DNA of 64,000 nt from Zoogloea sp. (lineage in GTDB: Bacteria > Pseudomonadota > Gammaproteobacteria > Burkholderiales > Rhodocyclaceae). Positions within the stretch are counted from its first letter, which is position 1; each line of letters starts with the position of its first letter. The stretch lies in the NCBI RefSeq assembly GCF_041915215.1, contig NZ_JAYSBV010000012.1. The stretch is one strand, 5' to 3'. Shown here in pieces: positions 17,897 to 39,644 of the stretch. The translations under genes and the position numbers were made by a program. The notes under the pieces were generated by a model. It did no database searches, was not told where the DNA came from, and worked only from the letters and a program-made list of their open reading frames with translations.

Positions 17897-17916
17897 CCAC
17901 TGCCCCCCCACGCCCC

Positions 17917-18738: not shown

Positions 18739-18802
18739 CACACCACATTTGCCCCCCTCGCCCGCCTTTTTTGATGCTTTGCCCTTTTTGAAGGAGAACA
18801 CC

Positions 18803-19666: not shown

Positions 19667-19710
19667 GCCACTCAACTCAACTCAACTTAACCCAACCCAG
19701 CTCAGCACCG

Positions 19711-19734
19711 CCACGTACCCCTCGGGGTACGTGG
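19711..19734 (+). terminator. perfect 10-bp-stem hairpin (CCACGTACCC-TCGG-GGGTACGTGG) without a U-tract
   Basis: Directly readable inverted repeat downstream of the outer-membrane protein gene. Confidence 0.4.
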
Positions 19735-20122
19735 CTTAGCAATTCCCCTTCTTGGCCTGACCCGGCGGGCAAAAATCCCCACCACCACGATGGCCCCCGC
19801 TGCCACCTCGGTTCGGGTCCACAATCACGGCGCCACCCGGGGTGTATACCGCGCAGCCCCCCAACAGATTCAAAAAACTCGCCACAGCAGCCAGCATCAG
19901 CACTTTTTTCATTATTTATCCCTCATCGCATTGATTGTGTGGAATGGATCAGACAGCACCCATCCTGCCACGAGTCATTAAAAAGCACATCTCCAAACAC
20001 CGCCATCCAGGGCCAGAGGCAGCGGTCTCCCCACCAAAATACCCCCCTTTCCTCCCCCTGTTCTCCCCTAAGCCCAAGGGCGCCGATATCTAAGATTGCT
20101 GCAACCCTTCCAAGGAGCAGCA

Positions 20123-23369: not shown

Positions 23370-24862
23370 GCACCAAGCCCCTCATGGTGTTTGAAATGGC
23401 CAACAACCACATGGGCGACCTGGGCCACGGCCTGGCCACCATCCGCGCCCTGCGCGAGGCCTGCACCGGCTTCGAGGCCGATTTCGACTTCGCCTTCAAG
23501 CTCCAGTACCGGGATCTGGACACCTTCATCCACGCCTCGGTGCGCGGGCGCGAAGACGTGAAGTACGTGAAGCGCTTTGAAGAAACCCGGCTGAGCGACG
23601 CTTCCTTTCAGGAACTGGTGCGGGAAATGCGCGACAACGGCTTTCAAACCGTATGCACACCCTTCGACGAGCCCTCGGTGGACAAGATCGAAGCCCACGC
23701 CATCGAGAGCATCAAGGTCGCCAGCTGCTCCTTCACCGATTGGCCCCTGCTGGAGCGCATCGCCCAGAGCAACAAGCCGGTGATCGCCTCCACCGCCGGC
23801 GCGACGCTGGAAGAGATCGACAACGTGGTGAGCTTCTTCCTGCACCGCCACAAGCAGCTCACCCTGATGCACTGCGTGGCCGAATACCCGACCCCGGACG
23901 CCAGCCTGCAGGTGAATCAGATCGCCCTGCTCCAGGCCCGCTACCCGGACTGCCGGATCGGCTACTCCACCCACGAATCCCCCGACAACACCCTGGCGGT
24001 GGCCCTGGCCGTGGCCAAGGGCGCCCGGGTGTTCGAGAAGCATGTGGTGCTGCCCACCGCCCGCTACCCGGCCAATGCCTACTCGGCCAACCCGGCCCAG
24101 ATCCGGGCCTGGCTGGAAAGTGCGCGCCGGGCCCTGGCCATCTGCGGCAGCGCCGACCGCTACCAGCCCTCCCGCGCCGAAGAAGCCAGCCTGCACAGCC
24201 TGCGCCGGGGGGTGTTTGCCACCCGCCCCATTCCTGCCGGCACCCAGCTGACCCGGGACATGATCGAGTTTGCCTTCCCGCCGGTGGAAGGCCAGCTCAC
24301 CGCCAACGCGTGGTCCAAGTACAGCCAGTTCCGCGCCACCCAGGACATTCCTGCCGGCACCCCGGTGCTGCACATGGATCTGGCCGAAAGCCACCTGCGC
24401 AGCCAGGTGATGGGCATCGTTCAAGACGTGAAGAAGCTGCTCAAGGCCGCCCATGTGGTGATTCCGGGCAAGTCGGAACTGGAGATTTCCCACCACTTCG
24501 GGCTGGAGCGCTTTGACGACTTCGGGCTCACCATGCTCACCGTGGTGAACCGGGAATACTGCAAGAAGCTGCTGGTGCTGCTGCCGGGCCAGACCCACCC
24601 CGAGCAATACCACCTCAAGAAGGAAGAAACCTTTGTGGTGGTGCACGGCGAACTCACCCTGTGGCTCGATGGCGAAGAACGCCTGGCCCACGCCGGCGAC
24701 GTGATCACCGTGAACCGGGGCGTGCGCCACCGCTTTTACACCCGCGTGGGCGCGGTGTTCGAGGAGATTTCCTCCACCCACGAGCCCAACGACTCCTACT
24801 ACACCGACCCGGCCATTGCGCGGAACACCCAGCGCAAGACCTGGCTCACCTACTGGATGTAA
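23366..24862 (+). CDS. NeuB-family (sialic-acid-synthase-like) PEP-condensing enzyme with SAF domain, fused to a C-terminal cupin
   Basis: NeuB signatures [44 protein letters not shown] domain [17 protein letters not shown]. An extra roughly 140-aa cupin ([23 protein letters not shown]). ATGA overlap with rfbH. Confidence 0.65.
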
Positions 24863-24880: not shown

Positions 24881-26704
24881 ATGCGCCTTGCCGACTGGAT
24901 CATGCAGCGCCTCGCCGCCGAAGGGGTGCGCCACGTTTTCACCCTGCCCGGGGGCGGTGCCATGCATCTGAACGATGCCTTGGCCTGCGAAACCCAGCTT
25001 ACCCCAGTGCCCGGCCACCACGAACAGGCCTGCGCCATTGCTGCCGAGGCCTGCGGGCGCAGCGGCCCCCCGGGCTTTGGCGTGGTGCTGGTGACCACCG
25101 GGCCGGGGGCCACCAATGTGGTGACGCCCGTGGCCGGGGCGTGGATAGACTCGGTGCCCCTGCTGGTGATTTCTGGCCAGGTGAAGCGGGCCGATCTGCT
25201 CAATGGCCGTCCCCTGCGCCAGACCGGCGTGCAGGAGGTGGACATCATCAGCATGGTGCGCGGCATCACCAAATACGCGGTCACCGTCACCGACCCCCTC
25301 ACCATCCGCCAGCACCTGGAACAGGCCCTGTACCGGATGCGCCATGGCCGGCCCGGCCCGGTCTGGCTGGATATTCCGTTGGACGTGCAGGCTGCCCCCA
25401 TCGAACCCGAACAGCTCCCCGGCTGGAGCGCCCCCGAGCTGGACAGCCCCCTGCCCGGTCACACCCTGAGCGCCATTGCCGGGCTGCTCCAGAAATCCCG
25501 CCGCCCGCTGATTCTGGCGGGCCACGGGGTGCGTCTGGCCGGCGCGGCCAAGGACTTCCGGCAACTGGTGGACGCCCTCGGGATTCCCGCCGTCACCACC
25601 TGGAACGCCCTGGACCTGCTCCCCTGGGAACACCCCCTCAACCTGGGCCGCCCCGGCGTGGTGGCCGCCCGGGCCGCCAATTTTGCGGTGCAGAACTGCG
25701 ACCTGCTGATCGCCATTGGCAGCCGGCTGGACCCCATCATCACCGCCTACAACCCCAAGGGCTTTGCCCGGGAGGCACGCAAGGTGGTGGTGGATGTGGA
25801 CCCCCACGAACTGGCCCGCCTCGCCCAGCAAGACATGCCCATCGACCACGCCCTGGCCCTGGATGCGGGCGACTTCATCCGGGGGCTGGAAGTGGCCACT
25901 CGCAGCCTGAACCTGGATCAGCACGAAGCCTGGCGGGTGCGCTGCCGGGGCTGGAAGACCCGCTATCCGCTCAACGAAACCCCGCGCTTCCCCAGCGAAG
26001 GCCCCATCGGCCACGCCCATTTTGTGGCGGCCCTCTCGGAGGCGGCCCCGCCGGATACCCTCATCAGCACCGGCAGTTCGGGGCTGGCGGTGGAGTTTTT
26101 CTATGCGGGCTTCAAGAACAAGGAAGGGCAGCGCTGCTTCCTCACTTCCGGGCTCGGGGCCATGGGCTACGGCCTGCCCGCAGCGATTGGCGCCAGCCTG
26201 GGCCAGGACAAGCAAGCCTCCCTGGCGGTGGAGTCCGATGGGAGCCTGCAGCTCAACCTGCAGGAACTCGCCACCCTGGTGGCCCAACGCCTGCCGGTGT
26301 GCCTGTTCATCATGAACAACGGGGGCTATGCATCGATCCGCAACACCCAGCGCAACTACTTTGCCGGGCGCTATCTGGCGAGCGGCCCCCAATCCGGCCT
26401 GCACATGCCCGAACTGGGCCCCCTCGCCACCGCCTACGGGCTGCCCTACATGCAGATCAGCAACTGCCGAAATCTGGCCCAGCAACTGCGCGAAGCGCAA
26501 AACCTGCCCCGCCCCTGCCTGATCGACGTGCGCCTGATTCCCGATGAAACCCTCGCCCCCAAGTGCGCCGCGATTCCCCGGCCCGACGGTTCGATTGTTT
26601 CCATGCCGCTCGAAGACATGAGCCCCCTGCTGCCCCTGGAAACCCTCCAGCGGGAAATGCTGGTGCCGCTCCTGCCCGCATCGCTGGAAGCCCCCCGTTC
26701 CTGA
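24881..26704 (+). CDS. thiamine-diphosphate-dependent acetolactate-synthase-like enzyme (YerE-type sugar two-carbon branching enzyme candidate)
   Basis: ALS/TPP family architecture, 607 aa, with a GDG-like TPP region. Embedded in the CDP-sugar operon, as yerE is in the yersiniose cluster. Confidence 0.7.
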   Translation: MRLADWIMQRLAAEGVRHVFTLPGGGAMHLNDALACETQLTPVPGHHEQACAIAAEACGRSGPPGFGVVLVTTGPGATNVVTPVAGAWIDSVPLLVISGQVKRADLLNGRPLRQTGVQEVDIISMVRGITKYAVTVTDPLTIRQHLEQALYRMRHGRPGPVWLDIPLDVQAAPIEPEQLPGWSAPELDSPLPGHTLSAIAGLLQKSRRPLILAGHGVRLAGAAKDFRQLVDALGIPAVTTWNALDLLPWEHPLNLGRPGVVAARAANFAVQNCDLLIAIGSRLDPIITAYNPKGFAREARKVVVDVDPHELARLAQQDMPIDHALALDAGDFIRGLEVATRSLNLDQHEAWRVRCRGWKTRYPLNETPRFPSEGPIGHAHFVAALSEAAPPDTLISTGSSGLAVEFFYAGFKNKEGQRCFLTSGLGAMGYGLPAAIGASLGQDKQASLAVESDGSLQLNLQELATLVAQRLPVCLFIMNNGGYASIRNTQRNYFAGRYLASGPQSGLHMPELGPLATAYGLPYMQISNCRNLAQQLREAQNLPRPCLIDVRLIPDETLAPKCAAIPRPDGSIVSMPLEDMSPLLPLETLQREMLVPLLPASLEAPRS

Positions 26705-26727: not shown

Positions 26728-27888
26728 ATGAGCCTCGCCTGCCGGCTGTGTGACCAGCCCCTGTTCCCCGACCCGCTGCTGTGCCAGCACCACATGCCCG
26801 CCGCCGCCCAGGAGCTGCCCACCGCCGCCACCCTGAGCGCCGATGGGGGGGTGAGTCTGGCCCTGCACCAGTGCAGCGCCTGCGGCGTGGTCCAGCTCAC
26901 CAACCCACCGGTGCCCTATTACCGGGACGTGATCCGCGCTGCCGGGCTCTCGGCGGAGATGCGCGCCTTCCGCCTCCAGCAGTTTGGCGCCTGGGTGGCC
27001 GGGCACGACCTCGCCGGCAAGCCGGTGCTGGAAGTGGGCTGCGGCCAGGGGGAATACCTGGCCCTGCTGCGCGAGGCCGGCGTGGATGCGTGGGGCCTGG
27101 AGCACCGGGCCGCCTCGGTGGCCCACTGCCAGACCCAGGGCCTGCAGGTCTTGCAGGGCTTCATGGAAGGCCCTGAAACCCGCTTCGCCGGGCCGGGCAT
27201 CCCGGGCCACTTCGACGGCTTTGCGATTCTCAATTTTCTGGAACACATCCCCGCCGCGCACCGAACCCTGGCCGGCATCGCCGCCCACCTGAGCCCGGGG
27301 GCCAGCGGGCTGGTGGAAGTGCCCAATTTCGACATGATCCTGAAGGCCGGGCTGTTTGCCGAGTTCATCCCGGATCATCTGCACTACTTCACCCAGGCCA
27401 CCCTCACCGGCCTGCTGGAGCGCAGCGGTTTCGAGGTGCTGGAGTGCCGGCCCGAATGGCACGATTACGTGCTCTCGGCCACGGTGCGCAAGCGCCAGCC
27501 CCTGGATCTGTCCAGCCTCAACCAGCGCCAGCACGCCCTGGCCGACGAATTCCGCCGCTTTCTGGCCGGCTTTGCGCCGGGCCGGGTGGCGATCTGGGGC
27601 GCTGGCCACCAGGCCCTGGCCCTCATCAGCCTGATGGACATCGCCCCCCACATCCGCTACGTGCTGGATTCGGCCCCCTTCAAGCAGGGGCGTTACACCC
27701 CGGCCACCCACCTGCCCATCGTGCCCCCCGAGCGGCTGGCCGAGGGCGAGGTGGATGCGGTCATCGTGCTCGCCGCCAGCTATTCGGACGAAGTGTTGCG
27801 CACCCTGCGGGCGCGCCACGGCAGCCGCTTTCGCACCGCTGCCCTGCGTGGCGAGCACCTGGTCTGCGATCCGGAGCCCCAGCCATGA
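26728..27888 (+). CDS. sugar C-methyltransferase (TylC3-like; Zn-ribbon + class I SAM MTase + C-methyltransferase C-terminal domain)
   Basis: N-terminal Cys-rich CRLCDQP...CQHH...CSACG. SAM motif VLEVGCGQGEY. C-terminal Rossmann-like VAIWGAGHQALALISL domain. Confidence 0.7.
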   Translation: MSLACRLCDQPLFPDPLLCQHHMPAAAQELPTAATLSADGGVSLALHQCSACGVVQLTNPPVPYYRDVIRAAGLSAEMRAFRLQQFGAWVAGHDLAGKPVLEVGCGQGEYLALLREAGVDAWGLEHRAASVAHCQTQGLQVLQGFMEGPETRFAGPGIPGHFDGFAILNFLEHIPAAHRTLAGIAAHLSPGASGLVEVPNFDMILKAGLFAEFIPDHLHYFTQATLTGLLERSGFEVLECRPEWHDYVLSATVRKRQPLDLSSLNQRQHALADEFRRFLAGFAPGRVAIWGAGHQALALISLMDIAPHIRYVLDSAPFKQGRYTPATHLPIVPPERLAEGEVDAVIVLAASYSDEVLRTLRARHGSRFRTAALRGEHLVCDPEPQP

Positions 27889-28442
27889 ATGCGCCACCTT
27901 CAAGCCCCGTCACCCCGGACGCCCTGGAGGCCGCCATTGCCACCCTGCAGGCCGCCGTGGGCTCGGCCCAGGCGGGGCTGCCCGAGCCGGTGTTCCAGCT
28001 GGTCAGCAGCCTGACCCCGCTCATCAATGTGGATCTGCTGATCCACGACGAACACGGTCGCTGCCTGCTCACCTGGCGCCACGATGCCTTCTACGGGCCA
28101 GGCTGGCACATTCCGGGGGGCATCATCCGCTTCAAGGAAGCCGCCGCCCAGCGCATTGCCGCCGTGGCCGACCTGGAGCTGGGCTGCTGCGTCACGTTCG
28201 CACCCCTGCCCATCGCCCTGCACGAAATCACCAACCCGAACCGGGACGTGCGCGGCCATTTCATCTCGCTGCTGTACTCCTGCCGCCTGGCCAGCCCCCC
28301 CGACCCGGGCCGGGCCTTTGATCCGGCCAGCCCCCGGGCAGGGGACTGGGCCTGGCACACGGGCAGCCCGGACAACCTGATCCACCAGCAGCACATCTAC
28401 CGCCCCTACATCGACAACCCCCTTGCCGGAGTCTGGTCATGA
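27885..28442 (+). CDS. NUDIX hydrolase, GDP-mannose mannosyl hydrolase (Gmm/NudD)-like NDP-sugar hydrolase
   Basis: Modified Nudix box GGIIRFKEAAAQRIAAVADLELG, alignable to Gmm GGRVQKDETLEAAFERLTMAELG. ATGA overlap with the methyltransferase. Confidence 0.55.
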   Translation: MNAPPSSPVTPDALEAAIATLQAAVGSAQAGLPEPVFQLVSSLTPLINVDLLIHDEHGRCLLTWRHDAFYGPGWHIPGGIIRFKEAAAQRIAAVADLELGCCVTFAPLPIALHEITNPNRDVRGHFISLLYSCRLASPPDPGRAFDPASPRAGDWAWHTGSPDNLIHQQHIYRPYIDNPLAGVWS

Positions 28443-29512
28443 GCGCGCTCGATATTCTGGTCACCACCTACAACGGCGTCGCCCACCTGGGTGACTGCCT
28501 GCAATCCCTCGTCCGGCAACGCTTCACCGACTTTCGGGTGCTGGTGATCGACAACGCCTCCAGCGACGCCACCCCCGCGCTGGTGGAAGAATGGATGGCC
28601 CGGGATGCCCGCATCCACTACCACCGCAACCCCCAGAACATCGGCCACATGCTGTCCGCCGACACGGCCTACCGGATGACCGGGGCCGAATACGTGCTCC
28701 AGATCCACGACGACGACATGCTGCACCCGGACTTCCTCAGCCAGGTGCTGGAACAGGGTCTAATGCAGCATCCGGACTGCCCCTTCGCCTACAGCCTGTT
28801 TTACCGGCTGGTGGACGGTGTCACCCTACCCGGCATCCACCAGTACCGGCCCGAGCTGCCCACCGGCGTGCATGACGTGCTGCCCGCCCTGTGCTTCACC
28901 AACTGGATCCTCCAGTCCTTCACCGTGTTCCGGCGGGCATGGTTTGATGCGGTAGGCGGCTTCCAGCGCCACATCGCCCGGCTCCACCCGGAAGACGCGG
29001 TCAAGCTGCGGGGCGGGTTTGTGGATCACTACATGTGGGCCCGGCTCGCCACCCTGGGGCCCGCCTATGTGGTGGATGAGCCCCTGGGCTATTACCGCAT
29101 CCACGCCAGCAGCCAGTTCAACCAGTCCAGCGGCAGCCGGCGCCTGATCCAGGAAGCGATCCGCACCTACGACTACATCTACGACGATCACGACCTGTTC
29201 GACGACGTGACCCGCTACCTGGTCAAGCTCAACCAGGCGGGCCGGCTGCTGACCCAGTGCGGGCTGATCAAAACCGCCGTCGACATGCTCCAGAGCCCCG
29301 ACACGGGCCCCGAACTGGCGCCCATCCGGCGTGCCTTCCTGCAGGGTCTGCACACCGGGCTGGAGCACATGGTGTTCGATTCCCCCAAGTTTCGGGAGCA
29401 CTTCCGGCTGGAAACGCCGGAAACCCTGGGCATGCTGGCCCAGATCATCCGCGACCTGCCCCCCGACACCACCCTGCGGCCCCGCAACACCCTGCGCGCC
29501 CGCATGTCCTGA
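28439..29512 (+). CDS. glycosyltransferase family 2
   Basis: ILVTTYNG...LVIDNASSD GT2 Rossmann start and a DDD motif. 4-nt overlap with the NUDIX gene. Confidence 0.75.
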   Translation: MSALDILVTTYNGVAHLGDCLQSLVRQRFTDFRVLVIDNASSDATPALVEEWMARDARIHYHRNPQNIGHMLSADTAYRMTGAEYVLQIHDDDMLHPDFLSQVLEQGLMQHPDCPFAYSLFYRLVDGVTLPGIHQYRPELPTGVHDVLPALCFTNWILQSFTVFRRAWFDAVGGFQRHIARLHPEDAVKLRGGFVDHYMWARLATLGPAYVVDEPLGYYRIHASSQFNQSSGSRRLIQEAIRTYDYIYDDHDLFDDVTRYLVKLNQAGRLLTQCGLIKTAVDMLQSPDTGPELAPIRRAFLQGLHTGLEHMVFDSPKFREHFRLETPETLGMLAQIIRDLPPDTTLRPRNTLRARMS

Positions 29513-29527: not shown

Positions 29528-30568
29528 ATGTCCCCCGCCCTGCTTGCCGCCCCACTAAACCCGTTTGCCGACTGGGCCGCCCTGCGTGGCGCCCGGATCT
29601 TCATCACCGGCGGCACCGGCCTGTTCGGCCACTGGCTGCAGCCCCTGCTCTGCCGGGCCAACCAAACCCACGGACTGGGGCTGCAGCTCACGGTACTGAG
29701 CCGCGACCCGGCGCGCTTTCTGGCCGCCCATCCGGAACTGGCCGATGATACGGCGCTCAGCTTCATCGCCGGGGATGTGCGCGACTTTGCCTTCCCGGCA
29801 GGGGAATTCAGCCATGTGATCCACGGGGCGGCCACCGCCGCTGCCGCCACCTTCCACCGCCAGGAAGACGCCCTCACCAAGTTCGACACCACCTATGCCG
29901 GTACCCGCCGGGTGCTGGATTTCGTGGCCGAACGGGGTATCCCGCGCCTGCTGGTGCTGGGCTCGGGCGCTTACTACGGCCCCCTCCAGGCGGGCCACAC
30001 GGCCTACCCGGAGGACTACCCGGTCGCCCCCGAGCCCGGCAATCTGGACGTGGCCATTGGCCATGCCAAGCGGGCGGCGGAGTTCCTGTGCGCGGCCTAC
30101 GCGGCCCGCCACGGGTTTTCGTATTCGGTGGCGCGCTGCTTTTCCTTTGTCGGCCCCCATCTGCCCCTGGATCTGCACTACGCCATCGGCAACTTCATTC
30201 GCGATGCGCTGACGGCGCCCGCCATCATCGTGGGGGGCGACGGCAGCCCGATCCGCTCCTATCTGTATCTGGGCGACCTGATGGTCTGGCTGCTGACCGT
30301 GCTCACCCGGGGCGCCCCGGGGCAGGCCTACAACGTGGGCTCGGATGAAGCGATCAGCATCGGCGAACTGGCCCGGCGGGTGGGCGCGCTGTTGGCGCCC
30401 GGCAAGCCGGTACACATCCTGGGCCAGCCGAACGGGCTGCCTACCCGCAACATCTACGTGCCGGACATCCGCCGCGCCCGGGCGGAACTGGGGCTGGACG
30501 TACTCACCCCGCTGGATGATGCGATCCGCATCACCGCCCGCCATGCCGCGCCCCAAAGGCCGAATTAG
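29528..30568 (+). CDS. NAD-dependent epimerase/dehydratase (SDR) family protein, candidate NDP-4-keto-sugar reductase/epimerase
   Basis: ITGGTGLFGHWL glycine-rich NAD-binding motif. About 346 aa. Confidence 0.7.
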   Translation: MSPALLAAPLNPFADWAALRGARIFITGGTGLFGHWLQPLLCRANQTHGLGLQLTVLSRDPARFLAAHPELADDTALSFIAGDVRDFAFPAGEFSHVIHGAATAAAATFHRQEDALTKFDTTYAGTRRVLDFVAERGIPRLLVLGSGAYYGPLQAGHTAYPEDYPVAPEPGNLDVAIGHAKRAAEFLCAAYAARHGFSYSVARCFSFVGPHLPLDLHYAIGNFIRDALTAPAIIVGGDGSPIRSYLYLGDLMVWLLTVLTRGAPGQAYNVGSDEAISIGELARRVGALLAPGKPVHILGQPNGLPTRNIYVPDIRRARAELGLDVLTPLDDAIRITARHAAPQRPN

Positions 30569-30694: not shown

Positions 30695-31807
30695 ATGAGC
30701 ATTGCCCTAACCCCTGACGCCGGCCTCAACCCCGGCGAAGCCGCGAAACGCAACGACCTGGCGCAACGCAAGCCCTACATCGCCGCCAAGCTGGCGCGCA
30801 TCACCGAGATGGAGGAACGCGGCGAGATCAGCCCCATCATCCGGCTGGAAAAGAGCTATCTGTGCAACTTCACTTGCACCCATTGCTCTGCCGAGTACTA
30901 CATGGACCGGCACCTTAAAAAGGTTTTCCAGATCGTGGATGAGCGCCGCAAGATTGATCTGGACGACATTCGCCGGATCTCCCGCGAAGCCGACGAACTG
31001 GGCCTTGCCCGCTTCGTGATTACCGGGGGCGAGCCCCTGGTGATGAAGGACTTCGATGAGGTGGTGGCCGCCATCGACCCGGATCGCCATTACGTGATCA
31101 CCGACACCAATGGCTGGTTCCTGGATCTGGCCAAGGCCAAGCACCTGAAATCCATCGGCGTTGAAAAAGTCCAGCTCTCGCTGGACAGCATGGTGGAAGC
31201 CGATCACGACGCCTTCCGCAACAAGCCCGGCTCCTACAAGCGGGTGATGCGCGCCATCGACGCGGCCCGGGAGGCCGGCCTCAACCTGATTCTCTCCACC
31301 GTGCTGGTCAAGGGCCGGGCCAAAACCGACGAGTTCCGCCAGATGTGCGAATTCGCCAAGGCCAAGGGCATCGGGCTGTATGTGTCTTACGCCAAGCCCA
31401 CCGGCTCGTGCACCGAACACCCGGAGTTCGTGATCGAGAAGGAAGACGCCGACATCGTGCGGGAGCTGGAAAAGGAATATCCGGTATTCACCCACATGAC
31501 CCCTTCCTACGGCTCCTTCAAGGGCTGCATCACGGTGAAGGGCATCATCACCATCACCTCCACCGCCGAGGTGACGCCCTGCCCCTACATTGATTTTTCG
31601 CTCGGCAACCTGCGCGAGACGCCCCTCAAGGAAATTCTCGCCCGGGGCATGCGCAATCCCTGGCTCGGCCCCCACCGGCCCGACTGCCTGATCGGCGAAG
31701 ACCCCCAGTTCATCAAGATCCACACCGAACGCACCCAGGGCCGCACCCATCTGCCGGTGCCCTGGGGCCAGGGTTTTTCGGATCACGACAGCCTCCAGGA
31801 CGAGTGA
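30695..31807 (+). CDS. radical SAM enzyme (CX3CX2C; C-terminal Cys-containing auxiliary region)
   Basis: CNFTCTHC cluster motif. GGEPLV SAM-binding motif. C-terminal CPYID...C residues. Confidence 0.75.
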   Translation: MSIALTPDAGLNPGEAAKRNDLAQRKPYIAAKLARITEMEERGEISPIIRLEKSYLCNFTCTHCSAEYYMDRHLKKVFQIVDERRKIDLDDIRRISREADELGLARFVITGGEPLVMKDFDEVVAAIDPDRHYVITDTNGWFLDLAKAKHLKSIGVEKVQLSLDSMVEADHDAFRNKPGSYKRVMRAIDAAREAGLNLILSTVLVKGRAKTDEFRQMCEFAKAKGIGLYVSYAKPTGSCTEHPEFVIEKEDADIVRELEKEYPVFTHMTPSYGSFKGCITVKGIITITSTAEVTPCPYIDFSLGNLRETPLKEILARGMRNPWLGPHRPDCLIGEDPQFIKIHTERTQGRTHLPVPWGQGFSDHDSLQDE

Positions 31808-31876
31808 ACGCACGAGCACGCACGCTCACGCAGCCCCCCACATACACCCCACCTTCCGACCCGGGAGCCAGAGACC

Positions 31877-32683
31877 ATGTTTGCCACCGCCGACACCCTG
31901 CCCGACCTGTCCCTGTTTGATGAAAGTGGCCGCTGCCTGCCCAAGGGCCTGAACGCCCCGGCCCACGCCCGCAGCCGTCGCTACTTCCGCCTCCAGCCGC
32001 CGCGTCTGGACATGCCCAATCTGCACGCCCGGCTGCGCCAGCACCTGGGCGCCGGCCAAGGCATCAGCACCCAGGATTTCTGCACCCGGGTGGACGCCCT
32101 GCGCGCCAACCTGCAGGCAGACCCCCACCTGGCCGCCATTACCCGGGGCATCGGGATTCCCTTCATCCTGCCCCGGCTGGAGCACCCTGATGTGGGTACC
32201 GTACTGGACAAGCGCTACCTGCCGGCCATTGCCAGCGCCTTTGGCCAGCGCTTCCCGGATTACCGCTTCACCAGCCACCACACCCGCCCCCTGGCCGGGC
32301 TGTTGGGGGTACTGGAAGGCAGTCGCCACGAACGCCTGATCGAAGCCAGCCGGGAACGGGAGGTGGTGGGCCTGTACTTCCCTTGCCTCTCGGAATACTC
32401 GGTGCCCGCCGCCCTCGAACAGGTGGCCCGGCTGCCCGACAACTTTGTGCTGGCCGGCGGCTATGACACCAGTGCCGCCCTGGTGGCCTGCCCCGAGCTG
32501 CTGCTGCGCACCGACGGTTACCCGCCCCTGCTGTGGCTTTCGGCCCTGGCCGAAAACGGCAAACCCGGCATTGGCTACCACTACGAAGCCTACGGCTACA
32601 ACCTGACCTTCAACCGGCGCCCCCACCTGGGCATGGCCGCCGAGTACTGGAGCCACGGCCTGAGCGTGCTGGAAACCGTCTGA
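31877..32683 (+). CDS. hypothetical protein
   Basis: Co-directional ORF inside the island with no recognisable motif. Start uncertain. Confidence 0.35.
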   Translation: MFATADTLPDLSLFDESGRCLPKGLNAPAHARSRRYFRLQPPRLDMPNLHARLRQHLGAGQGISTQDFCTRVDALRANLQADPHLAAITRGIGIPFILPRLEHPDVGTVLDKRYLPAIASAFGQRFPDYRFTSHHTRPLAGLLGVLEGSRHERLIEASREREVVGLYFPCLSEYSVPAALEQVARLPDNFVLAGGYDTSAALVACPELLLRTDGYPPLLWLSALAENGKPGIGYHYEAYGYNLTFNRRPHLGMAAEYWSHGLSVLETV

Positions 32684-32725: not shown

Positions 32726-35700
32726 ATGTCCAGCACGCTCCTGCGTCAGCTCTACGGCGCCCGCCGCCATCCCTATTACGTGATGGCCCCGGACTACCGG
32801 CGCACCTCCGCCGGCATCCGGGTCATGCACCAGCTCTGCCATGCCCTGCGCCTGAGCGGGGAGGAGGCCTGGATCGTGACCCAGCAGACCCACCCGGGCC
32901 TGGACACGCCCCTCCTGACCGATGAAATCCGCGCCGCCCACCAGAAAGCCGGCCTGGTGCCCATCGCCATTTACCCGGAAGTGGTGGGCCGCAACCCGCT
33001 CAACGGACGCGTGGTGGTGCGCTACCTGCTCAACCGCCCGGGCATGCTGGGCGAAACCCCGGCCTACGGCGCCGATGATCTGATTTACGTATACGAACCC
33101 GAGCTGGCCACCCACAGCGAGCGGGTGGATGGGGTGCTGCACATGCCCTCCATCGACACCCGGCTGTTCCATAACCGGGACAACCCGGACGAGGGCCGAC
33201 GCTCGGGATGCTGCATCTACTTTGGGCGCTACACCGGCGGCCCCCAGGAATACGCCGAACTGGCCGCCCGCTGCACCACGATCACCAGCGACTTTCCGGC
33301 CAGCCGGGAAGCACTGGCCGCCCTGCTGCGCCGCTCCGAATGGCTCTACTGCTTCGAAAACACCGCCCTGTCGATGGAAGCCCGCCTGTGCGGCTGCCCG
33401 GTGGTGATCCTGCCCGGCCCCATGTTCCGGGCCGAGAGCTTCTTTGGCCGGGAGCAGGGCTTTGAGCAAGGGGTGGCCTTCTCCGAAGAGCCCGCCGCCC
33501 TCGCCCAGGCCCGGGCCAGCGTGGGGCGCATCCCCGCCCTCTACGCCCGGCTGGAAGAAAAGTTCTGGAGCGGGCTGGACAGCCTGATCGAACAGACCCA
33601 GACCCGGGCCCAGGAAGAAGCCGCCCGCATCGGCGAAGAAGACCCGGCCCACCCCCGGAGCAGCAGCCAGGACCCGGAATACGCCACCTGGCGCGCCCGC
33701 CAGAGCCTGCAGGAAGTGGATGCCGAGGTGCTGGCCGAACGCATGGTGCAGCGCTGGACCCACCGCCCGGGCATCCACCTGATCCTCGAACTGCGCGCCG
33801 GCCAGGAGCCCCTGCTGGCCGACACCCTGGACAGCCTGGCCGCCCAGCTCTACCCCGAGTGGCTGCTGACCGTGGTGACGGTGCTGGACAAGCCCCCGGT
33901 GGCCGATGAGATTCCGAATCTCCAGTGGCTGAGCCTGCGCGACATCACCCACACCGATTACGTCATCGACGAAATGGCCAAGGCCTCCCCGGGCCAGTGG
34001 GTCGCCCGCATCGTGCCCGGCCTGACCCTGGAACCCCAGGCCCTGCAGGTGGCAGCGGATTACATCAATGCCCGCCCGGCCTGGCGCCTGATCTACACCG
34101 ACGAAGACACCCTGGAAGCAGACGGCAGCTACAGCCAACCCCTGTTCAAGCCCGATTTCAACCTGGACCTGCTGCGCGCCCAGGCCTATTTCGGCAGCCT
34201 GGTGCTGGTGGAAAAGCAGGCCCTGGTGGCCGCCGGCAGCTATGGCCCGGGCCAATACCCCTGGGCCGAAAACTATGACCTGAGCCTGCGGGTGCTGGAA
34301 CAGCAGGGCGAGGCGAGCATCGGCCACATCGACCAGATGCTCGTGCACCTGCATCGTCACAGCCCCCTCAGCCTCAACCCGGCCAGCGAAAAGGCCGCCC
34401 TGGAAGCCCATCTGGCCCGTTGCGGGCTGGAAGTGCGGGTACACGACAGCCCCCTGGCCGGCACCCGCCGGCTGGAACACCTGTGGCCCACCACGCCCCT
34501 GGTCAGCCTCATCATCCAGACCCGGGACCGGGAGGAATACCTGCGCCCCCTGCTGGACAGCCTGCGCGAACGCACCCGCTACCCGGCCTGGGAAGTGGTG
34601 CTGGTGGATAACGACAGCAGCGAGCACGACAGCCTCGCCTACCTGGCCGAGCTGCAGGCCGACCCGTTCTGGAGTGCCCGGCTGCGCGTCGTCCCCTGCC
34701 CGGGTGAGTTCAGCTACGCCCGGGGCGCCAACACCGGCGCCCGCCAGGCCCGGGGCGCCTATCTGATGTTCCTGGACAACGACATGCACATCGTTCAGGA
34801 CGAATGGCTGGACCGGCTGATGAGCCACGCCCAGCGCCCCGAGGTACTGATCGTGGGCCCGCGCCTGAGCTACCCGGAAACTGGCAAGGTACAGCAGACC
34901 GGCTGGGTGCTGGGCCTGCGGGGCAGTGCCGGCAGCCCCTGGGACAATGATCTCGAACTGGCCGCCCCCGGCTACATGGGGCGCGGGCTGTGCGATCAGA
35001 ACGTGGGCGCCATTGGCGGCTCGGCCCTGCTGATCCGCCAGACCGAATTTGCCCGGGTGGGCGGGATGGACGAGGTGAATTTCCCCCTCGCCCAAAGCGC
35101 GCTGGATCTGTGCCTGCGCGTTACCGGCGAAGGGGCCCCGGCGGGTGCCAAGATCGTCTGGACCCCCCACGCGATGCTGGTCCATTACGGCAGCGTTTCC
35201 CTCAAGGCCCGCCAGCGCAAGACCGAGGTGGCCCTGGCCGACCTGCTTGAAGCCCAGCGCGCCCACGATCAGGTGGTGGAGCGCTGGCTCCCCCGGCTGG
35301 CCCGGGACCCGGCCTATAACCGCCATCTGAGCTTGGTCAGCCCCTTCAAGCCCGAACATGTGATCCCCATGGACTGGGATCCGAACTTCCACGACCGGCC
35401 CCGCATTCTGGGCGTTCCGCTCACCGGCGGCGCTGGGGAATACCGGCTGCGCGCCCCCCTGCGCGCCCTGGCCCAACGGGGCCTGGCCCAGACCACCATC
35501 TGCGATCCACCCCGGGCCTTTACGGTGCGCATCCTGTCGCCAGTGGAAGTGGCCCGGGCCGCGCCGGACAGCCTGGTGCTGCACCAGCCCCTGGATGATG
35601 CCCAGAGCGACGCCCTCGCGGCCTACGCCCGCTTCGTCCCTGAGGTGAAGCGCATCGTGACCATGGATGACCTGATCACCGCCCTGCCCAAGAAGAACTG

Positions 35701-36394
35701 CTTTTATAAAAGCGGCTTCAAGGACGCCCGGGCCCGGCTGCGCCGCAACCTGGGCCTGGCAGACCGGCTGGTGGTGAGCACCCAGCCCCTGGCCGAGCTG
35801 TGCGCCGGGATGATCGACGATATCCGGGTGATGCCCAACGGGCTGGAAAGCGCACTCTGGCTCCCGGTTCAGCCGCCCCGCAAAGCCCGCCGCAAGCCCC
35901 GGGTGGGCTGGGCCGGCGCCCAACAGCACCAGGGCGACCTGGAACTGATTTACCCGGTGGTGGAAGCCCTGGCCGATGAGGTGGACTGGATTTTCATGGG
36001 CATGTGCCCGGACCCGCTCAAACCCTTCGTACGGGAAGCCCACGGCTTCGAGCTGAATTTCCGGGCCTATCCGGCAGCCCTCGCCCGGCTGGATCTGGAT
36101 CTGGCCATCGCGCCCCTGGAAATCCACGCCTTCAACGAAGCCAAGAGCAACCTGCGCCTGCTGGAATACGGGGCCATGGGCTGGCCCGTGGTGTGCACCG
36201 ACATCTACCCTTACCAGGACGCACCGGTGACCCGACTCCCCAACGATCCACAACGCTGGATCACCACCCTGCGCGAAATGCTGGCCGAACCCGAGGCCCT
36301 GGCCGCTGCGGGTCAGCAGCTACGCCAATGGGTTCTGGATCGTTACCTACTTGAAAACCTGCTGCCAGACTGGCTCTCCGCCTACGGCCCCTGA
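32726..36394 (+). CDS. large multidomain glycosyltransferase (unknown N-terminal region + two GT2 domains + C-terminal GT1/GT4-like domain)
   Basis: LVSLIIQTRD...VVLVDNDSS...FLDNDM (GT2 with DxD). An earlier GT2-like segment (LILELRAG...YTDEDT). C-terminal RVGWAGAQQHQGD...GWPVVCTDIYPY GT1-like segment. Ends 290 nt before fliC. Confidence 0.75.
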   Translation: MSSTLLRQLYGARRHPYYVMAPDYRRTSAGIRVMHQLCHALRLSGEEAWIVTQQTHPGLDTPLLTDEIRAAHQKAGLVPIAIYPEVVGRNPLNGRVVVRYLLNRPGMLGETPAYGADDLIYVYEPELATHSERVDGVLHMPSIDTRLFHNRDNPDEGRRSGCCIYFGRYTGGPQEYAELAARCTTITSDFPASREALAALLRRSEWLYCFENTALSMEARLCGCPVVILPGPMFRAESFFGREQGFEQGVAFSEEPAALAQARASVGRIPALYARLEEKFWSGLDSLIEQTQTRAQEEAARIGEEDPAHPRSSSQDPEYATWRARQSLQEVDAEVLAERMVQRWTHRPGIHLILELRAGQEPLLADTLDSLAAQLYPEWLLTVVTVLDKPPVADEIPNLQWLSLRDITHTDYVIDEMAKASPGQWVARIVPGLTLEPQALQVAADYINARPAWRLIYTDEDTLEADGSYSQPLFKPDFNLDLLRAQAYFGSLVLVEKQALVAAGSYGPGQYPWAENYDLSLRVLEQQGEASIGHIDQMLVHLHRHSPLSLNPASEKAALEAHLARCGLEVRVHDSPLAGTRRLEHLWPTTPLVSLIIQTRDREEYLRPLLDSLRERTRYPAWEVVLVDNDSSEHDSLAYLAELQADPFWSARLRVVPCPGEFSYARGANTGARQARGAYLMFLDNDMHIVQDEWLDRLMSHAQRPEVLIVGPRLSYPETGKVQQTGWVLGLRGSAGSPWDNDLELAAPGYMGRGLCDQNVGAIGGSALLIRQTEFARVGGMDEVNFPLAQSALDLCLRVTGEGAPAGAKIVWTPHAMLVHYGSVSLKARQRKTEVALADLLEAQRAHDQVVERWLPRLARDPAYNRHLSLVSPFKPEHVIPMDWDPNFHDRPRILGVPLTGGAGEYRLRAPLRALAQRGLAQTTICDPPRAFTVRILSPVEVARAAPDSLVLHQPLDDAQSDALAAYARFVPEVKRIVTMDDLITALPKKNCFYKSGFKDARARLRRNLGLADRLVVSTQPLAELCAGMIDDIRVMPNGLESALWLPVQPPRKARRKPRVGWAGAQQHQGDLELIYPVVEALADEVDWIFMGMCPDPLKPFVREAHGFELNFRAYPAALARLDLDLAIAPLEIHAFNEAKSNLRLLEYGAMGWPVVCTDIYPYQDAPVTRLPNDPQRWITTLREMLAEPEALAAAGQQLRQWVLDRYLLENLLPDWLSAYGP

Positions 36395-36681: not shown

Positions 36682-37506
36682 ATGGCTGCCACGATCAACA
36701 CCAATTCCATGTCGCTCAACGCACAGCGGAATCTGTCTTCCTCGGCCGGTATCATGGCCAAGTCGGTCCAACGCCTGTCTTCGGGCCTGCGGATCAACGG
36801 CGCATCCGATGATGCAGCCGGCCTGGCGATTGCCGACAAGATGAACTCCCAGGCCAAGGGTTTTGACGTGGCCATCCGCAATGCCAACGACGGCATCTCC
36901 ATGGCCCAGACCGCAGAAAGCGCGATGCAGGCCGTGACCGACAACCTCCAGCGGATGCGCGAACTGGCGGTCCAGTCGGCCAACGGTACCTACACCAGCG
37001 GTGACCAGGCCAACATGGATACGGAATTCCAGCAGCTGCAATCGGAAATCCAGCGGGTTGTGGGGGGCACCACCTTCAACGGTCAGAACGTGCTGAACCT
37101 CAGCTCCAACGTGAATTTCCAGGTGGGTGCCGGTACTGCCACCACGGACACCATCACGGTGCAAAGCAGCGCAGTGACCCTGTCCGGGGTGTCCGCCGCC
37201 GTGACCGGCAGCATCAGCGCCGCCTCGGCTGCCACCGCCGCGATTGCCAACATCGACACCCAGATCAACAACCTGAACACTGCCCGCGCCACGTGGGGCG
37301 CCGTGCAGAACCGGTTCTCCTCGGTGGTCCAGACCCTGCAGGTGGCTTCGGAAAACGCCAAGTCCTCCCGTGGCCGGATCATGGATGCAGACTTCGCCCA
37401 GGAAACCTCCAACATGACCCGCGGCCAGATCCTGCAACAGGCCGGTACCGCGATGGTGGCCCAGGCCAACAGCGCCCCCAACAACGTGCTGTCCCTGCTC
37501 CGCTAA
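36682..37506 (+). CDS. fliC: flagellin (short, 274 aa)
   Basis: Conserved flagellin N-terminus ([16 protein letters not shown]...[20 protein letters not shown]) and C-terminus ([26 protein letters not shown]). RBS AAGGAG. Confidence 0.9.
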
Positions 37507-38270: not shown

Positions 38271-39644
38271 ATGGCAACGCTTTCTTCCGCCGGCATAGGT
38301 TCGGGACTCAATGTGGAGTCCCTGATTTCAGGCTTGATGCAGATCGAGCGGCAACCGCTGACGAGTCTCCAGACCCAGCAGAGCACCGCCCAATCCAAGA
38401 TTTCGGCCCTCGGGACCATCAAGAGCAATCTGGCTTCGCTCCAGAACGCTGCCAAGGCCCTGACGCCCACCACGCTGCAAACGGCCACCTCGGCCCTGTC
38501 CAACTACACGGCAGCCCTGACCGACACCACCATTGGCAGCGCCAGTGCCACCAGCTCGGCCGTGCCGGGCACCTACAGCATCGAAGTCACCGCCCTCGCC
38601 AACGAGCAGCGCTACCAGCTGGGCAAGTCCTACGCCAGCACCGATGCGGTCATCGATTTCGGTGGCGCGAGCACCAAGACCCTGAGCTTCACCAAAGGCA
38701 GCACCACCGTTAACGTAACCCTGGACACCACCCAGAACACCCTGGGCGGCATCCGTGATGCGATCAACAAGGCCGGCACGGGTCTGAACGCCACCGTGGT
38801 CACCGGCACCGACGGCAAGCAGAACCTCCTGCTTTCGGCCGCCACCGGGGGGACGGCCAACACCGTCAGCATCGGAGGCACGGCCCAGTTCATCGACAGC
38901 AGCAACCCGAGTTCGCCGATTGCCGCCAGCAGTGCCTTCAACCAGACCCAAGCCGCCACCGACGCGGTGGTCAAAGTGCAAGGGGTTTCGATCAGCACTG
39001 CCGGCAACACCATCACCGGCGCGGTGGATGGTGTCACCCTGAACCTCACCAAAACAGGCACCACCACCCTCACCGTGTCCCGGGACACCTCGGCCCTGCA
39101 GACCAAGCTGCAGACCTTGGTGAATTCCTACAACACCCTGAACAGCTCCATCAAAAACCTGAGCGCCTACAACGCCAACACCAAGACCGCAGCCGTCCTG
39201 AACGGCGACTCCACCCTGCGCAGCATCCAGGGCACCCTGCGCAACACCCTGGGCAATGCCTCCGACTCCACCAGCAGCAGCATCAAACAGCTGGCCGATA
39301 TCGGCGTGAGTTTCCAGACCGACGGCAGCCTGAGCCTGGATACTGCCAAGTTCAGCAAGGCCGCTACCACCGATTTTGCCGCGACAGCCAGCGTGATCGC
39401 GTACTACTCCAAGGCCCTCAAGAGTGACGCTACGGCCATGCTGGACACCAATGGCACCCTGACCAACCGAACAACGGGCCTGAACTCCACGGTCAAGAAT
39501 CTGGGCAAGCAGATCGACGCCATGAACACCCGGCTCACCCGCATCGAAAATAACTACCGCAGCCAGTACACAGCCCTGGACAAGGCCATGAGCAGCATGA
39601 GCACCACCAGCAGCTACCTCACCCAACAATTGGCACTGCTCTAA
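38271..39644 (+). CDS. fliD: flagellar filament cap protein FliD (hook-associated protein 2)
   Basis: N-terminal GIGSGLNVESLISGLMQIERQPLTSLQTQQ signature. 457 aa. Confidence 0.85.
   Translation: MATLSSAGIGSGLNVESLISGLMQIERQPLTSLQTQQSTAQSKISALGTIKSNLASLQNAAKALTPTTLQTATSALSNYTAALTDTTIGSASATSSAVPGTYSIEVTALANEQRYQLGKSYASTDAVIDFGGASTKTLSFTKGSTTVNVTLDTTQNTLGGIRDAINKAGTGLNATVVTGTDGKQNLLLSAATGGTANTVSIGGTAQFIDSSNPSSPIAASSAFNQTQAATDAVVKVQGVSISTAGNTITGAVDGVTLNLTKTGTTTLTVSRDTSALQTKLQTLVNSYNTLNSSIKNLSAYNANTKTAAVLNGDSTLRSIQGTLRNTLGNASDSTSSSIKQLADIGVSFQTDGSLSLDTAKFSKAATTDFAATASVIAYYSKALKSDATAMLDTNGTLTNRTTGLNSTVKNLGKQIDAMNTRLTRIENNYRSQYTALDKAMSSMSTTSSYLTQQLALL

Follow-up and report, generated by a model that had tools for sequence, protein, structure and literature searches.

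A twitch-type radical-SAM enzyme and its orphan partner protein: a probable tailoring step in a branched-sugar cassette of Zoogloea

The open reading frame at 30695..31807 (plus strand, ATG start, 370 aa) in a 64,000-nucleotide stretch of Zoogloea sp. DNA (hereafter, the window) is, judging from its sequence, a genuine radical-SAM enzyme of an uncharacterized family. We conclude with high confidence that this protein is the catalytic subunit of a two-protein enzyme formed with the product of the adjacent gene, here denoted p268, and that the pair performs a tailoring step in the sugar pathway encoded by the surrounding cassette.

The translation contains the sequences YLC57NFTC61THC64, ITGGEPLV and TPC296PYID, so that all three motifs listed in the initial annotation (CNFTCTHC, GGEPLV and CPYID) are present. 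The CX3CX2C site (codons C57-N-F-T-C61-T-H-C64, 30863..30886, plus strand) is predicted to provide the ligands of the SAM-cleaving [4Fe-4S] cluster, and its three cysteines (C57, C61 and C64) show no variation among 28 close or 18 distant relatives. In the 'GGE' SAM-binding motif (codons G111-G-E-P-L-V116, 31025..31042, plus strand), residues G111-G112-E113-P114 are conserved, the last three of them without exception throughout the wider clade. The Radical_SAM domain (PF04055) is recognized with an E-value of 5.6e-23 and a score of 82.4 bits, well above the Pfam cut-off of 29.5. The GC3 of the reading frame (0.84) equals that of the other genes of the host, which identifies 30695..31807 on the plus strand as coding; its mirror image on the minus strand, at 30707..31819, was discarded as the usual high-GC artifact. 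The protein, which ends with ...DSLQDE, is 100% identical to WP_374489718.1, described as 'radical SAM/SPASM domain-containing protein [Zoogloea sp.]', and carries a family-specific N-terminal helical extension of about 50 aa. Its fold falls with those of MoaA, SkfB and BlsE; confidence in the AF2 model is low near the cluster loops (pLDDT 72).

The additional C-terminal cysteines noted in the initial annotation (CPYID) are there, but they belong to a truncated rather than a full SPASM domain. The Pfam SPASM profile scores 24.2 bits over residues 278-316, somewhat above its cut-off of 21.5, and the match spans only profile positions 1-44 of 67, with C278-X17-C296 inside the N-terminal portion. 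Five extra cysteines (C218, C239, C278, C296 and C331) are invariant in close homologs. C239 is replaced by alanine in a homolog of 72% identity and varies in the wider clade, C218 is likewise not conserved, and among relatives of 30-50% identity C278, C296 and C331 are the only C-terminal cysteines that are still invariant. The full SPASM subfamily with two auxiliary clusters was rejected: the match is partial, and the C-terminal region contains neither the CX2CX5CX3C block nor the 7-8 cysteines of complete SPASM domains. By these sequence features, the protein is a member of the twitch subfamily, in which a truncated SPASM domain keeps its beta-hairpin half and provides cysteines for a single auxiliary cluster, and the region at 31526..31687 (plus strand) with C278, C296 and C331 is a candidate three-cysteine auxiliary Fe-S site.

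The pattern of cysteine conservation also bears on the type of reaction. Radical epimerases such as NeoN and YydG/EpeE return the hydrogen atom from a conserved cysteine. A redox-neutral epimerization at an unactivated stereocenter of the sugar or its side chain, similar to that catalyzed by NeoN or AviX12, could in principle be envisaged for the Zoogloea enzyme, but it contains no conserved non-cluster cysteine, C239 and C218 both being variable, and we regard such an activity as distinctly unlikely.

None of the curated radical-SAM families accepts this protein. The scores are 99.3 bits against a cut-off of 284 for MoaA (TIGR02666), 103 against 500 for AhbD, 94 against 500 for NirJ2, 69.5 against 515 for NirJ, and 52 against 225 for HpnH. 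The full SPASM domain and the sulfatase partner expected of an anSME were not found, the B12-binding domain (PF02310) that typifies GenK and Fom3 has no match, and close similarity to DesII or AprD4 was not detected at either the sequence or the fold level. Because all curated cut-offs are missed widely and the gene lies among sugar genes, a housekeeping assignment (MoaA, AhbD/NirJ, PqqE, HpnH or anSME) can be ruled out. The initial annotation had named membership in a housekeeping family with no conserved linkage to sugar genes as a threat to its reading, and had proposed a comparison with DesII, Fom3/GenK and the SPASM/twitch subfamilies; the threat is not borne out, and in the comparison only the twitch subfamily proved a match. 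The family has no characterized member at any identity level, so that both substrate and reaction are predicted here entirely from gene context and analogy.

The gene of p268 (31877..32683, plus strand; WP_374489719.1, 'hypothetical protein'), which encodes an orphan-family protein of 268 aa, follows immediately. A p268 gene is found next to the radical-SAM gene, on the same strand, in all 72 related loci, and in homologs of approximately 630 aa, which occur in many organisms, the two proteins are fused into one chain, with one of these fusions located in the same sugar cassette. A p268-like ORF also adjoins a radical-SAM relative of only 49% identity. The p268 sequence matches no known family or fold, and a Foldseek search returned no significant relative.

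Upstream of the pair and on the same strand, the window encodes three enzymes for CDP-4-keto-3,6-dideoxyglucose, each scoring above its equivalog cut-off: the glucose-1-phosphate cytidylyltransferase RfbF (20123..20893; TIGR02623, 461.6 bits versus 300; gene call from an identical contig), the CDP-glucose 4,6-dehydratase RfbG (20878..22014; TIGR02622, 447.6 bits versus 278) and the E1-type CDP-6-deoxy-4-hexulose 3-dehydrase RfbH (22002..23369; NF011936, 719.8 bits versus 423). These genes are followed by a fusion of a NeuB-type PEP-condensing synthase with SAF and cupin domains (23366..24862; Pfam NeuB, SAF and Cupin_2), in which the NeuB part is similar to PDB 3g8r (483 bits) and the cupin part, resembling D-lyxose/D-mannose isomerases, to 2y0o (E-value 1.5e-7) and 7nzo. 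The next gene encodes a predicted YerE/JanthE-like ThDP carboligase, or 'brancher', with three TPP domains (24881..26704), for which the best solved relative is 8rph (377 bits, compared to 249 bits for acetolactate synthases). The 8rph structure is that of JanthE, an enzyme whose own physiological substrates are unknown (PMC12188165). The methyltransferase gene at 26728..27888 combines PF13489 (Methyltransf_23) with the C-terminal C-methyltransferase domain PF08484 and has its best PDB matches among sugar 3-C-methyltransferases (5t64, TcaB9 and mycarose 3-C-methyltransferase), placing the protein in the NDP-sugar 3-C-methyltransferase family. Thus, the two neighbors to which the initial annotation had pointed, a ThDP brancher and a C-methyltransferase, are both real and match the respective Pfam domains. 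The remaining cassette genes encode a 185-aa NUDIX hydrolase (27885..28442; Pfam E-value 6.7e-5; weak best PDB match, GDP-mannose mannosyl hydrolase, E-value 0.003), a 357-aa family-2 glycosyltransferase (28439..29512; Glycos_transf_2) present in just 10% of the related loci, and an extended SDR of the epimerase/reductase family (29528..30568; Pfam Epimerase), a candidate side-chain ketoreductase.

RfbH scores above its equivalog cut-off, yet no gene for its E3 reductase (DdhD/RfbI-like) was detected in the island within the window or among the gene families recurring around 74 loci. This gap could be taken to mean that the Fe-S pair replaces the missing reductase and feeds electrons to RfbH for C-3 deoxygenation. 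We consider this extremely improbable: the CX3CX2C and GGE apparatus for SAM cleavage is invariant, which would be needless in a mere electron carrier, and both proteins lack flavin and NAD(P)H domains. Furthermore, E1-type enzymes can be served by general cellular reductases.

The link between the pair and this cassette recurs across phyla, in support of the proposal in the initial annotation that the radical-SAM protein is a sugar-pathway enzyme in an island for an elaborate product. We examined the 10-kb surroundings of 50 loci from Beta-, Gamma- and Alphaproteobacteria, Nitrospirales, Bacteriovoracia and Pirellulales. The ThDP enzyme is encoded within 10 kb of the pair in 45 of these (90%), and the C-methyltransferase, NUDIX, NeuB-cupin and SDR genes co-occur with the pair in 88%, 82%, 80% and 76% of the loci, respectively. 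In one of the five loci seemingly devoid of a ThDP gene in this range, re-examination located the cassette elsewhere on that contig, about 17 kb upstream; a further contig, with flanks too short for inclusion among the 50, likewise carries it about 17 kb upstream of the pair, and the existence of the pair without the ThDP cassette was discarded for both contigs. Sulfuricella-type loci possess the pair and lack the TylC3-like methyltransferase, the NUDIX hydrolase and the extended SDR, indicating that coupling to these three genes is not obligatory. A PNP_UDP_1 nucleosidase gene lies beside the cassette in nine loci, mostly in Chromobacterium, and separate B12-dependent radical-SAM genes occur in 21 related loci and not in the Zoogloea window.

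From Betaproteobacteria to Nitrospirales and Pirellulales, the radical-SAM family has diverged far less than the other components of the pathway, with a mean identity across phyla of 80%, compared to 50-65% for the cassette neighbors. For the Zoogloea copy, recent horizontal transfer was discarded as the cause because its GC3 is host-like and the neighbors are much more diverged. Searches of phage and plasmid collections yielded only superfamily-level matches, with less than 30% identity.

More distant relatives, which at 30-50% identity match no curated family, retain the association with sugar genes: those with 41-50% identity still adjoin ThDP, NeuB-cupin, DegT or C-methyltransferase genes. 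At 27-31% identity, nine of the ten multidomain relatives are fusions with a Methyltransf_23 domain. The methyltransferase and radical-SAM-relative genes overlap in one locus (L081), and in another (L084) the methyltransferase gene is located directly 3' of that of the relative; in loci of the Sulfuricella type, PF08484, which is the sugar-binding domain, is itself fused to radical-SAM domains. Together with the methyltransferase adjacency, these fusions could indicate that the radical-SAM enzyme and the SAM methyltransferase form a system for radical methylation or alkylation, or for later processing of the C-methyl branch. However, the fold, with no B12 domain and neither HemN-like nor RlmN-like, corresponds to no known class of radical methylases, some pairs have no TylC3-like methyltransferase nearby, and the fusion partner within the family proper is p268 rather than a methyltransferase. 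A role in methylation therefore appears quite improbable.

The explanation that we favor, albeit tentatively, is that the pair catalyzes a tailoring step in a pathway for a CDP-linked, C-branched 3,6-dideoxyhexose by a radical mechanism that forms a carbonyl. RfbF, RfbG and RfbH would supply CDP-4-keto-3,6-dideoxyglucose, and the NeuB-isomerase fusion, aided by the NUDIX hydrolase (and in other genomes by a HAD phosphatase), would produce a 3-deoxy-2-ulosonic acid, that is, an alpha-keto acid. The JanthE/YerE-like enzyme would decarboxylate this acid and add it to C-4 of the sugar, and the sugar 3-C-methyltransferase and the SDR would modify the coupled product. In the radical-SAM protein, the CX3CX2C-bound [4Fe-4S] cluster would reductively cleave SAM, and the resulting 5'-deoxyadenosyl radical would take a hydrogen atom from a carbinol carbon in the sugar ring or the polyhydroxyalkyl side chain. 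The substrate radical could then be resolved, with the help of the putative twitch auxiliary cluster (C278, C296, C331), either by one-electron oxidation, as in BtrN, or, in the manner of AprD4 or DesII, by elimination of a vicinal hydroxyl group. Both routes would give a carbonyl open to the methyltransferase and the SDR, and p268 may bind or present the sugar substrate. By analogy with these enzymes, formation of a carbonyl on the CDP-sugar or a side-chain intermediate is conceivable, and we put it forward with reserve: the annotated cassette reaches a branched, methylated and reduced sugar without the radical-SAM enzyme, so that no step demands carbonyl formation.

The gene order downstream of the pair suggests where the sugar might be used. 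In Zoogloea, the cassette lies directly upstream of the gene for a 1222-aa glycosyltransferase (32726..36394, plus strand; Pfam, GT2 core at residues 594-719), a candidate flagellin glycosyltransferase that co-locates with FliC in related loci of Rhodocyclales. This gene is followed on the same strand by fliC (36682..37506; flagellin of 274 aa; Pfam Flagellin_N/C, identical contig) and then by flaG, fliD (38271..39644) and fliS (Pfam FlaG, FliD and FliS, identical contig; FliD reconfirmed by Pfam in the window). Given that glycosyltransferases are encoded directly upstream of fliC and would transfer the finished sugar, flagellin is the likely target of the branched sugar in Zoogloea, as judged solely by gene position. 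A literature search on radical-SAM enzymes in connection with flagellin glycosylation, yersiniose/caryophyllose-type sugars or CDP-dideoxy sugars found no relevant paper. Alternatively, the pair could act on the glycoprotein or flagellin itself, after or alongside glycosyl transfer, in the manner of anSME, SkfB or SuiB. Against such a role, FliC is encoded within 10 kb of the pair in only 26% of the loci; the Nitrospirales and Pirellulales loci examined contain the cassette and the pair with no flagellar genes nearby; distant relatives retain sugar-enzyme neighbors and not flagellin; and p268 has no significant structural relative. Direct action on the protein thus seems very improbable.

The general scheme recently put forward for acyl-branched bacterial sugars has so far included no radical chemistry; this family would bring in such a step, and the cassette provides a physiological setting for JanthE-like ThDP enzymes, which have been studied as biocatalysts. 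To our knowledge, sugar-tailoring radical-SAM enzymes are few, and each of them (DesII, BtrN, AprD4, BlsE and MoaA) has revealed new chemistry. In Zoogloea, which forms flocs in wastewater, and in Chromobacterium, flagellin probably carries the sugar, which may therefore affect motility, recognition by phages or the immune system, and flocculation. Direct tests of the system are within reach, given defined genes, natural fusions for expression and a flagellin amenable to mass spectrometry.

Among solved structures, the nearest relative of the radical-SAM protein by both sequence and fold is MoaA (GTP 3',8-cyclase), which also has a three-cysteine auxiliary cluster, in this case binding the substrate. 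This kinship invites the alternative of C-C bond formation or rearrangement by the Zoogloea enzyme: attack of the substrate or 5'-deoxyadenosyl radical on an sp2 carbon would yield a higher-carbon sugar with a carbocycle, a contracted ring or an extended chain, as in reactions of MoaA, PolH/NikJ, Cds/HpnJ/PtmC or HpnH/MqnE. Radical-SAM enzymes are a known route to sugar-derived carbocycles, the cross-phylum conservation suggests an unusually demanding reaction, and the nucleosidase gene beside some of the cassettes would fit as well; moreover, caryose, which co-occurs with ThDP-branched caryophyllose, is of unknown origin (PMC9092360). The Zoogloea protein differs from MoaA in lacking the C-terminal Gly-Gly tail, in its N-terminal extension, in its obligate partner p268 and in its association with sugar rather than molybdopterin genes. 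We consider C-C bond chemistry unlikely. Also rather unlikely is that the pair represents a new two-component enzyme, with a partner fold absent from solved structures, which performs a skeleton-changing step (carbocyclization, ring contraction or radical C-C coupling) on the ThDP-branched CDP-sugar. In that case, many phyla would display a caryose-like or unprecedented higher-carbon sugar on their flagella and in further surface glycans, and the 80% identity would reflect the demands of the chemistry.

For the carbinol oxidation considered as one route to the carbonyl, the precedent is BtrN, or 2-deoxy-scyllo-inosamine dehydrogenase. This sugar/cyclitol-tailoring radical-SAM protein, with which the twitch group was founded, has a truncated SPASM domain and one auxiliary cluster. 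Carbonyl formation at unactivated positions of sugars is exemplified by AprD4/AprD3 and DesII (radical dehydratase/deaminase). In the case of AprD4, a partner reductase comes next, an arrangement mirrored by the radical-SAM enzyme and SDR of the cassette. With BlsE (cytosylglucuronate decarboxylase), the similarity is confined to the core (query residues ~52-198), and BlsE acts in another pathway, without a partner protein.

At the level of the whole pathway, ErwE, MMAR_2332 and MyGE are established cases of the coupling of an alpha-keto acid to CDP-4-keto-3,6-dideoxyglucose (PMC9306805), and a 2025 review of the enzymes of acyl-branched sugars does not contain the word 'radical'. The pathways of YerE, ErwE, MMAR_2332 and MyGE (for yersiniose, erwiniose, caryophyllose and gastriose) employ the same acceptor, an alpha-keto acid donor, a ThDP carboligase and then a reductase, as is predicted for the Zoogloea cassette; their clusters, however, encode class II pyruvate aldolases and no radical-SAM enzyme. 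More than 200 YerE-like cassettes are on record. In Zoogloea, by comparison, the donor apparently comes from the NeuB-isomerase fusion, and the radical-SAM enzyme with p268, the 3-C-methyltransferase and the NUDIX hydrolase are added to the common scheme.

The open reading frame at 30695..31807 (+ strand, ATG start) encodes a 370-aa protein identical to the deposited WP_374489718.1 from Zoogloea sp., and its translation bears out the motifs named in the initial annotation: the CX3CX2C motif reads C57-NFT-C61-TH-C64, the GGEPLV SAM motif is part of ITGGEPLV (residues 110-116), and the C-terminal CPYID is present as TPC296PYID. Pfam Radical_SAM matches the protein with an E-value of 5.6e-23, and SPASM scores above the threshold with a partial alignment limited to profile positions 1-44 of 67. 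The GC3 of the gene (0.84) is in line with the rest of the genes in this genome (~66% GC), which indicates that the frame is coding and that this copy is a long-standing resident. An NCBIfam search yielded no model near its cut-off (AhbD, 103 bits against 500; MoaA, 99 against 284; NirJ2, 94 against 500; HpnH, 52 against 225). Among solved structures, MoaA is the top hit in a sequence search, ahead of BlsE, SkfB and PqqE; with a profile of the wider clade, MoaA scores 106 bits and SkfB 90 bits, with SuiB, BlsE, PqqE and BtrN lower. The radical-SAM motifs and fold class of this protein are established.

Cysteines 57, 61, 64, 218, 239, 278, 296 and 331 are invariant among 28 close homologs, and position 239 is Ala in one 72%-identical homolog. 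At 30-50% identity, only C57, C61 and C64 together with C278, C296 and C331 stay invariant, so the C-terminal domain, in which three cysteines are conserved, is a truncated SPASM of the twitch type. We infer that this site binds an auxiliary cluster; the substrate-binding auxiliary cluster of MoaA has the same cysteine count. The MoaA-like three-cysteine site, the extreme conservation of the protein and the precedents for carbocycle formation by radical-SAM enzymes (PMC9092360) speak for C-C bond formation or rearrangement, a reaction that we nevertheless regard as rather unlikely. Epimerization is unlikely, given that the protein has no conserved hydrogen-donor cysteine. An N-terminal helical extension of ~50 residues, with invariant K26, P27 and K32, is specific to the clade.

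The next open reading frame (31877..32683, +) encodes a 268-aa protein, p268, that matches no Pfam or NCBIfam family and whose homologs are all named 'hypothetical protein'. AF2 models p268 with confidence, yet comparison with the PDB gives no significant structural match. Of 72 related loci, all 72 have a p268 gene directly 3' of the radical-SAM gene and in the same orientation, and a p268-like frame also accompanies a radical-SAM relative of 49% identity. About one quarter of the top radical-SAM homologs are ~630 aa long; since residues 381-632 of one of these, P0047, align with p268 (48% identity), the long homologs are fusions of the two proteins. The P0047 gene has the same cassette around it as the unfused pair. 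Many such fusions are present among metagenomic homologs. Given the absence of a family match, the uniformly 'hypothetical' homologs and the constant pairing or fusion, we treat p268 as an orphan family; our guess is that its role is substrate recognition.

All genes between ~20.1 and 39.6 kb of the window are on the + strand. The island opens with RfbF, glucose-1-phosphate cytidylyltransferase (20123..20893), RfbG, CDP-glucose 4,6-dehydratase (20878..22014), and RfbH, the E1 3-dehydrase (22002..23369), each passing the equivalog cut-off, and continues with a NeuB-SAF-cupin fusion (23366..24862), a ThDP enzyme (24881..26704), a C-methyltransferase (26728..27888), a NUDIX hydrolase (27885..28442), a GT2 glycosyltransferase (28439..29512) and an extended SDR (29528..30568). 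The radical-SAM-p268 pair is followed by a 1222-aa glycosyltransferase (32726..36394) and by flagellin (36682..37506), then flaG, fliD and fliS. Directly upstream (15095..19666, +) are genes for an amino-acid permease, ethanolamine ammonia-lyase EutB and EutC, and a Gcw_chp protein, so that the island is not flanked by flgL, in contrast to the flagellin glycosylation islands of Pseudomonas. Because the island is immediately upstream of fliC, flagellin is the likely sugar acceptor in this Zoogloea; that the radical-SAM enzyme itself acts on flagellin or the glycoprotein seems highly improbable.

Scanning a single genome for each species gave 74 loci with radical-SAM homologs of 68-88% identity (mean 80%) in Beta-, Gamma- and Alphaproteobacteria, Nitrospirales, Bacteriovoracia and Pirellulales. 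In the 50 loci whose flanks extend for 9 kb or more in both directions, tblastn with the island proteins detected p268 in 100%, the ThDP enzyme in 90%, the C-methyltransferase in 88%, NUDIX in 82%, NeuB-cupin in 80%, SDR in 76%, RfbH in 58% (often it is just outside the flank), the giant glycosyltransferase in 32% and FliC in 26%. Five loci apparently lack the cassette; in the two contigs checked, L073 (one of the five) and L076 (short flank, outside the 50), the ThDP, NeuB-cupin and C-methyltransferase genes are found ~17 kb upstream of the pair in the same island, separated from it by a second sugar-acyl module. This module (loci L089 and L090, on these same two contigs) encodes DegT, a FabA-like protein, a second ThDP enzyme, NeuB, adh_short, KAS III, a PglD-like acetyltransferase, ACP and an AMP-binding enzyme; such modular flagellar islands, up to ~30 kb long, occur in some Rhodocyclaceae. 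Two accessory genes are absent from the window: a HAD phosphatase gene directly 3' of p268 (23 loci) and a B12-dependent radical-SAM gene (21 loci, from Chromobacterium to Pirellulales); examples are L079 17118..18863, L055 11911..14724 and L068 16582..18339. No flagellar genes are found near the cassette in the Nitrospirales and Pirellulales loci examined, which makes it a sugar module that is portable and not tied to flagella. Over the 74 loci, all neighbors of the radical-SAM gene average 50-65% identity, with p268, the fused partner, at 50%. As a source of the high radical-SAM identity, recent transfer is at odds with the host-like GC3 of the window copy.

The linkage extends deep into the radical-SAM clade. 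Relatives of 49-50% identity adjoin a TylC3-like C-methyltransferase gene, and one of 41% adjoins a split ThDP enzyme, a methyltransferase, DegT and an epimerase. The cassette of a 44% relative encompasses NTP-transferase, SDR, DegT, SDR, NeuB-cupin, a 99-aa frame, the radical-SAM protein, a second radical-SAM protein, ThDP and GT2. In metagenome contigs L082 and L083, this compact cassette ends with ThDP, GT2, GT2, the second radical-SAM protein is of the rSAM/SPASM type, and the many short flanking frames without Pfam matches may belong to a phage or other mobile element. Conserved sugar-gene linkage in both close and distant relatives supports the sugar-pathway role proposed in the initial annotation over a housekeeping family lacking such linkage. 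Coupling to SAM-methyltransferases is likewise recurrent: 9 of 10 multidomain relatives (27-31% identity) are fused to Methyltransf_23, a class I SAM methyltransferase domain, in either order (P0316-P0318, P0335, P0337, P0342, P0347, P0350 and P0360). That the enzyme performs methylation chemistry jointly with the methyltransferase is decidedly unlikely in our view. The P0360 gene belongs to a glycan cluster of the CMP-sugar type, in which there are five or more radical-SAM genes and several methyltransferases. Two adjacent Sulfuricella proteins (L039 17715..18992 and 18989..20239) each combine Radical_SAM with PF08484, the C-terminal domain of NDP-sugar C-methyltransferases, an architecture of which we know no description.

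The best solved relative of the ThDP enzyme, at 377 bits, is 8rph (acetolactate synthases reach 249); this is JanthE, a YerE-like carboligase of Janthinobacterium that has no known physiological substrates (PMC12188165). JanthE is a biocatalysis enzyme, and the cassette may offer a clue to what enzymes of its type do physiologically. In the alignment, the ThDP-binding motif is SDG in the window enzyme, CDG in JanthE and GDG in canonical enzymes. The C-methyltransferase is closest to sugar 3-C-methyltransferases (the PDB 5t64 enzyme, TcaB9 and the mycarose enzyme), and the NUDIX protein matches GDP-mannose mannosyl hydrolase weakly. The NeuB part of the fusion scores 483 bits against the structural-genomics entry 3g8r and the cupin part resembles D-lyxose/D-mannose isomerases, which suggests, by analogy with KdsD followed by KdsA, an isomerase-synthase tandem that would supply the ThDP enzyme with a 3-deoxy-2-ulosonic acid donor. 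The gene set fits the published acyl-branched sugar scheme, in which a YerE-like enzyme decarboxylates an alpha-keto acid and adds it to C-4 of CDP-4-keto-3,6-dideoxyglucose, followed by reduction (PMC9306805); in the window, the 4-hydroxy-2-oxo acid would come from a PEP-dependent NeuB-type synthase instead of the pyruvate aldolase. Membership of the pair in a branched-CDP-sugar cassette is established. No E3 (DdhD/RfbI-type) reductase gene was detected in the island or among the families recurring around the 74 loci. RfbH, the E1 enzyme, passes its equivalog cut-off, yet the island has no E3 gene to provide electrons for C-3 deoxygenation; substitution of the radical-SAM protein as electron donor to RfbH is an idea to which we give hardly any credence.

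The radical-SAM protein, with p268, is very probably a tailoring enzyme of this sugar pathway. By analogy with characterized enzymes, we tentatively favor carbonyl-forming chemistry: the enzyme would take a hydrogen from a carbinol carbon in a pathway intermediate, which may be the CDP-sugar, the side chain added to it by the ThDP enzyme, or the ulosonic-acid donor. The radical would become a carbonyl either in the manner of BtrN, through oxidation via the auxiliary cluster, or with loss of a hydroxyl, for which AprD4 and DesII are precedents. This carbonyl would then be passed on to the C-methyltransferase and the SDR. In a concrete version, the radical-SAM protein and the SDR, as an analog of AprD4/AprD3, would deoxygenate the fully hydroxylated NeuB-derived side chain, giving omega-deoxy side chains as in caryophyllose-type sugars.

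Literature searches retrieved no account of a radical-SAM enzyme that takes part in flagellin glycosylation or comparable sugar pathways, and the word 'radical' does not occur in PMC12247030. We class the protein as a radical-SAM sugar-tailoring enzyme; its family is uncharacterized, widespread and hyper-conserved, and its obligate partner is novel. YerE-type pathways have been described without a radical enzyme (PMC9306805), whereas the window cassette includes one. The enzyme works like MoaA, BtrN and BlsE, the small group of twitch radical-SAM enzymes that tailor sugars and nucleotides, but belongs to none of these families, since all family-defining tests applied failed except for those of the superfamily and the twitch class.
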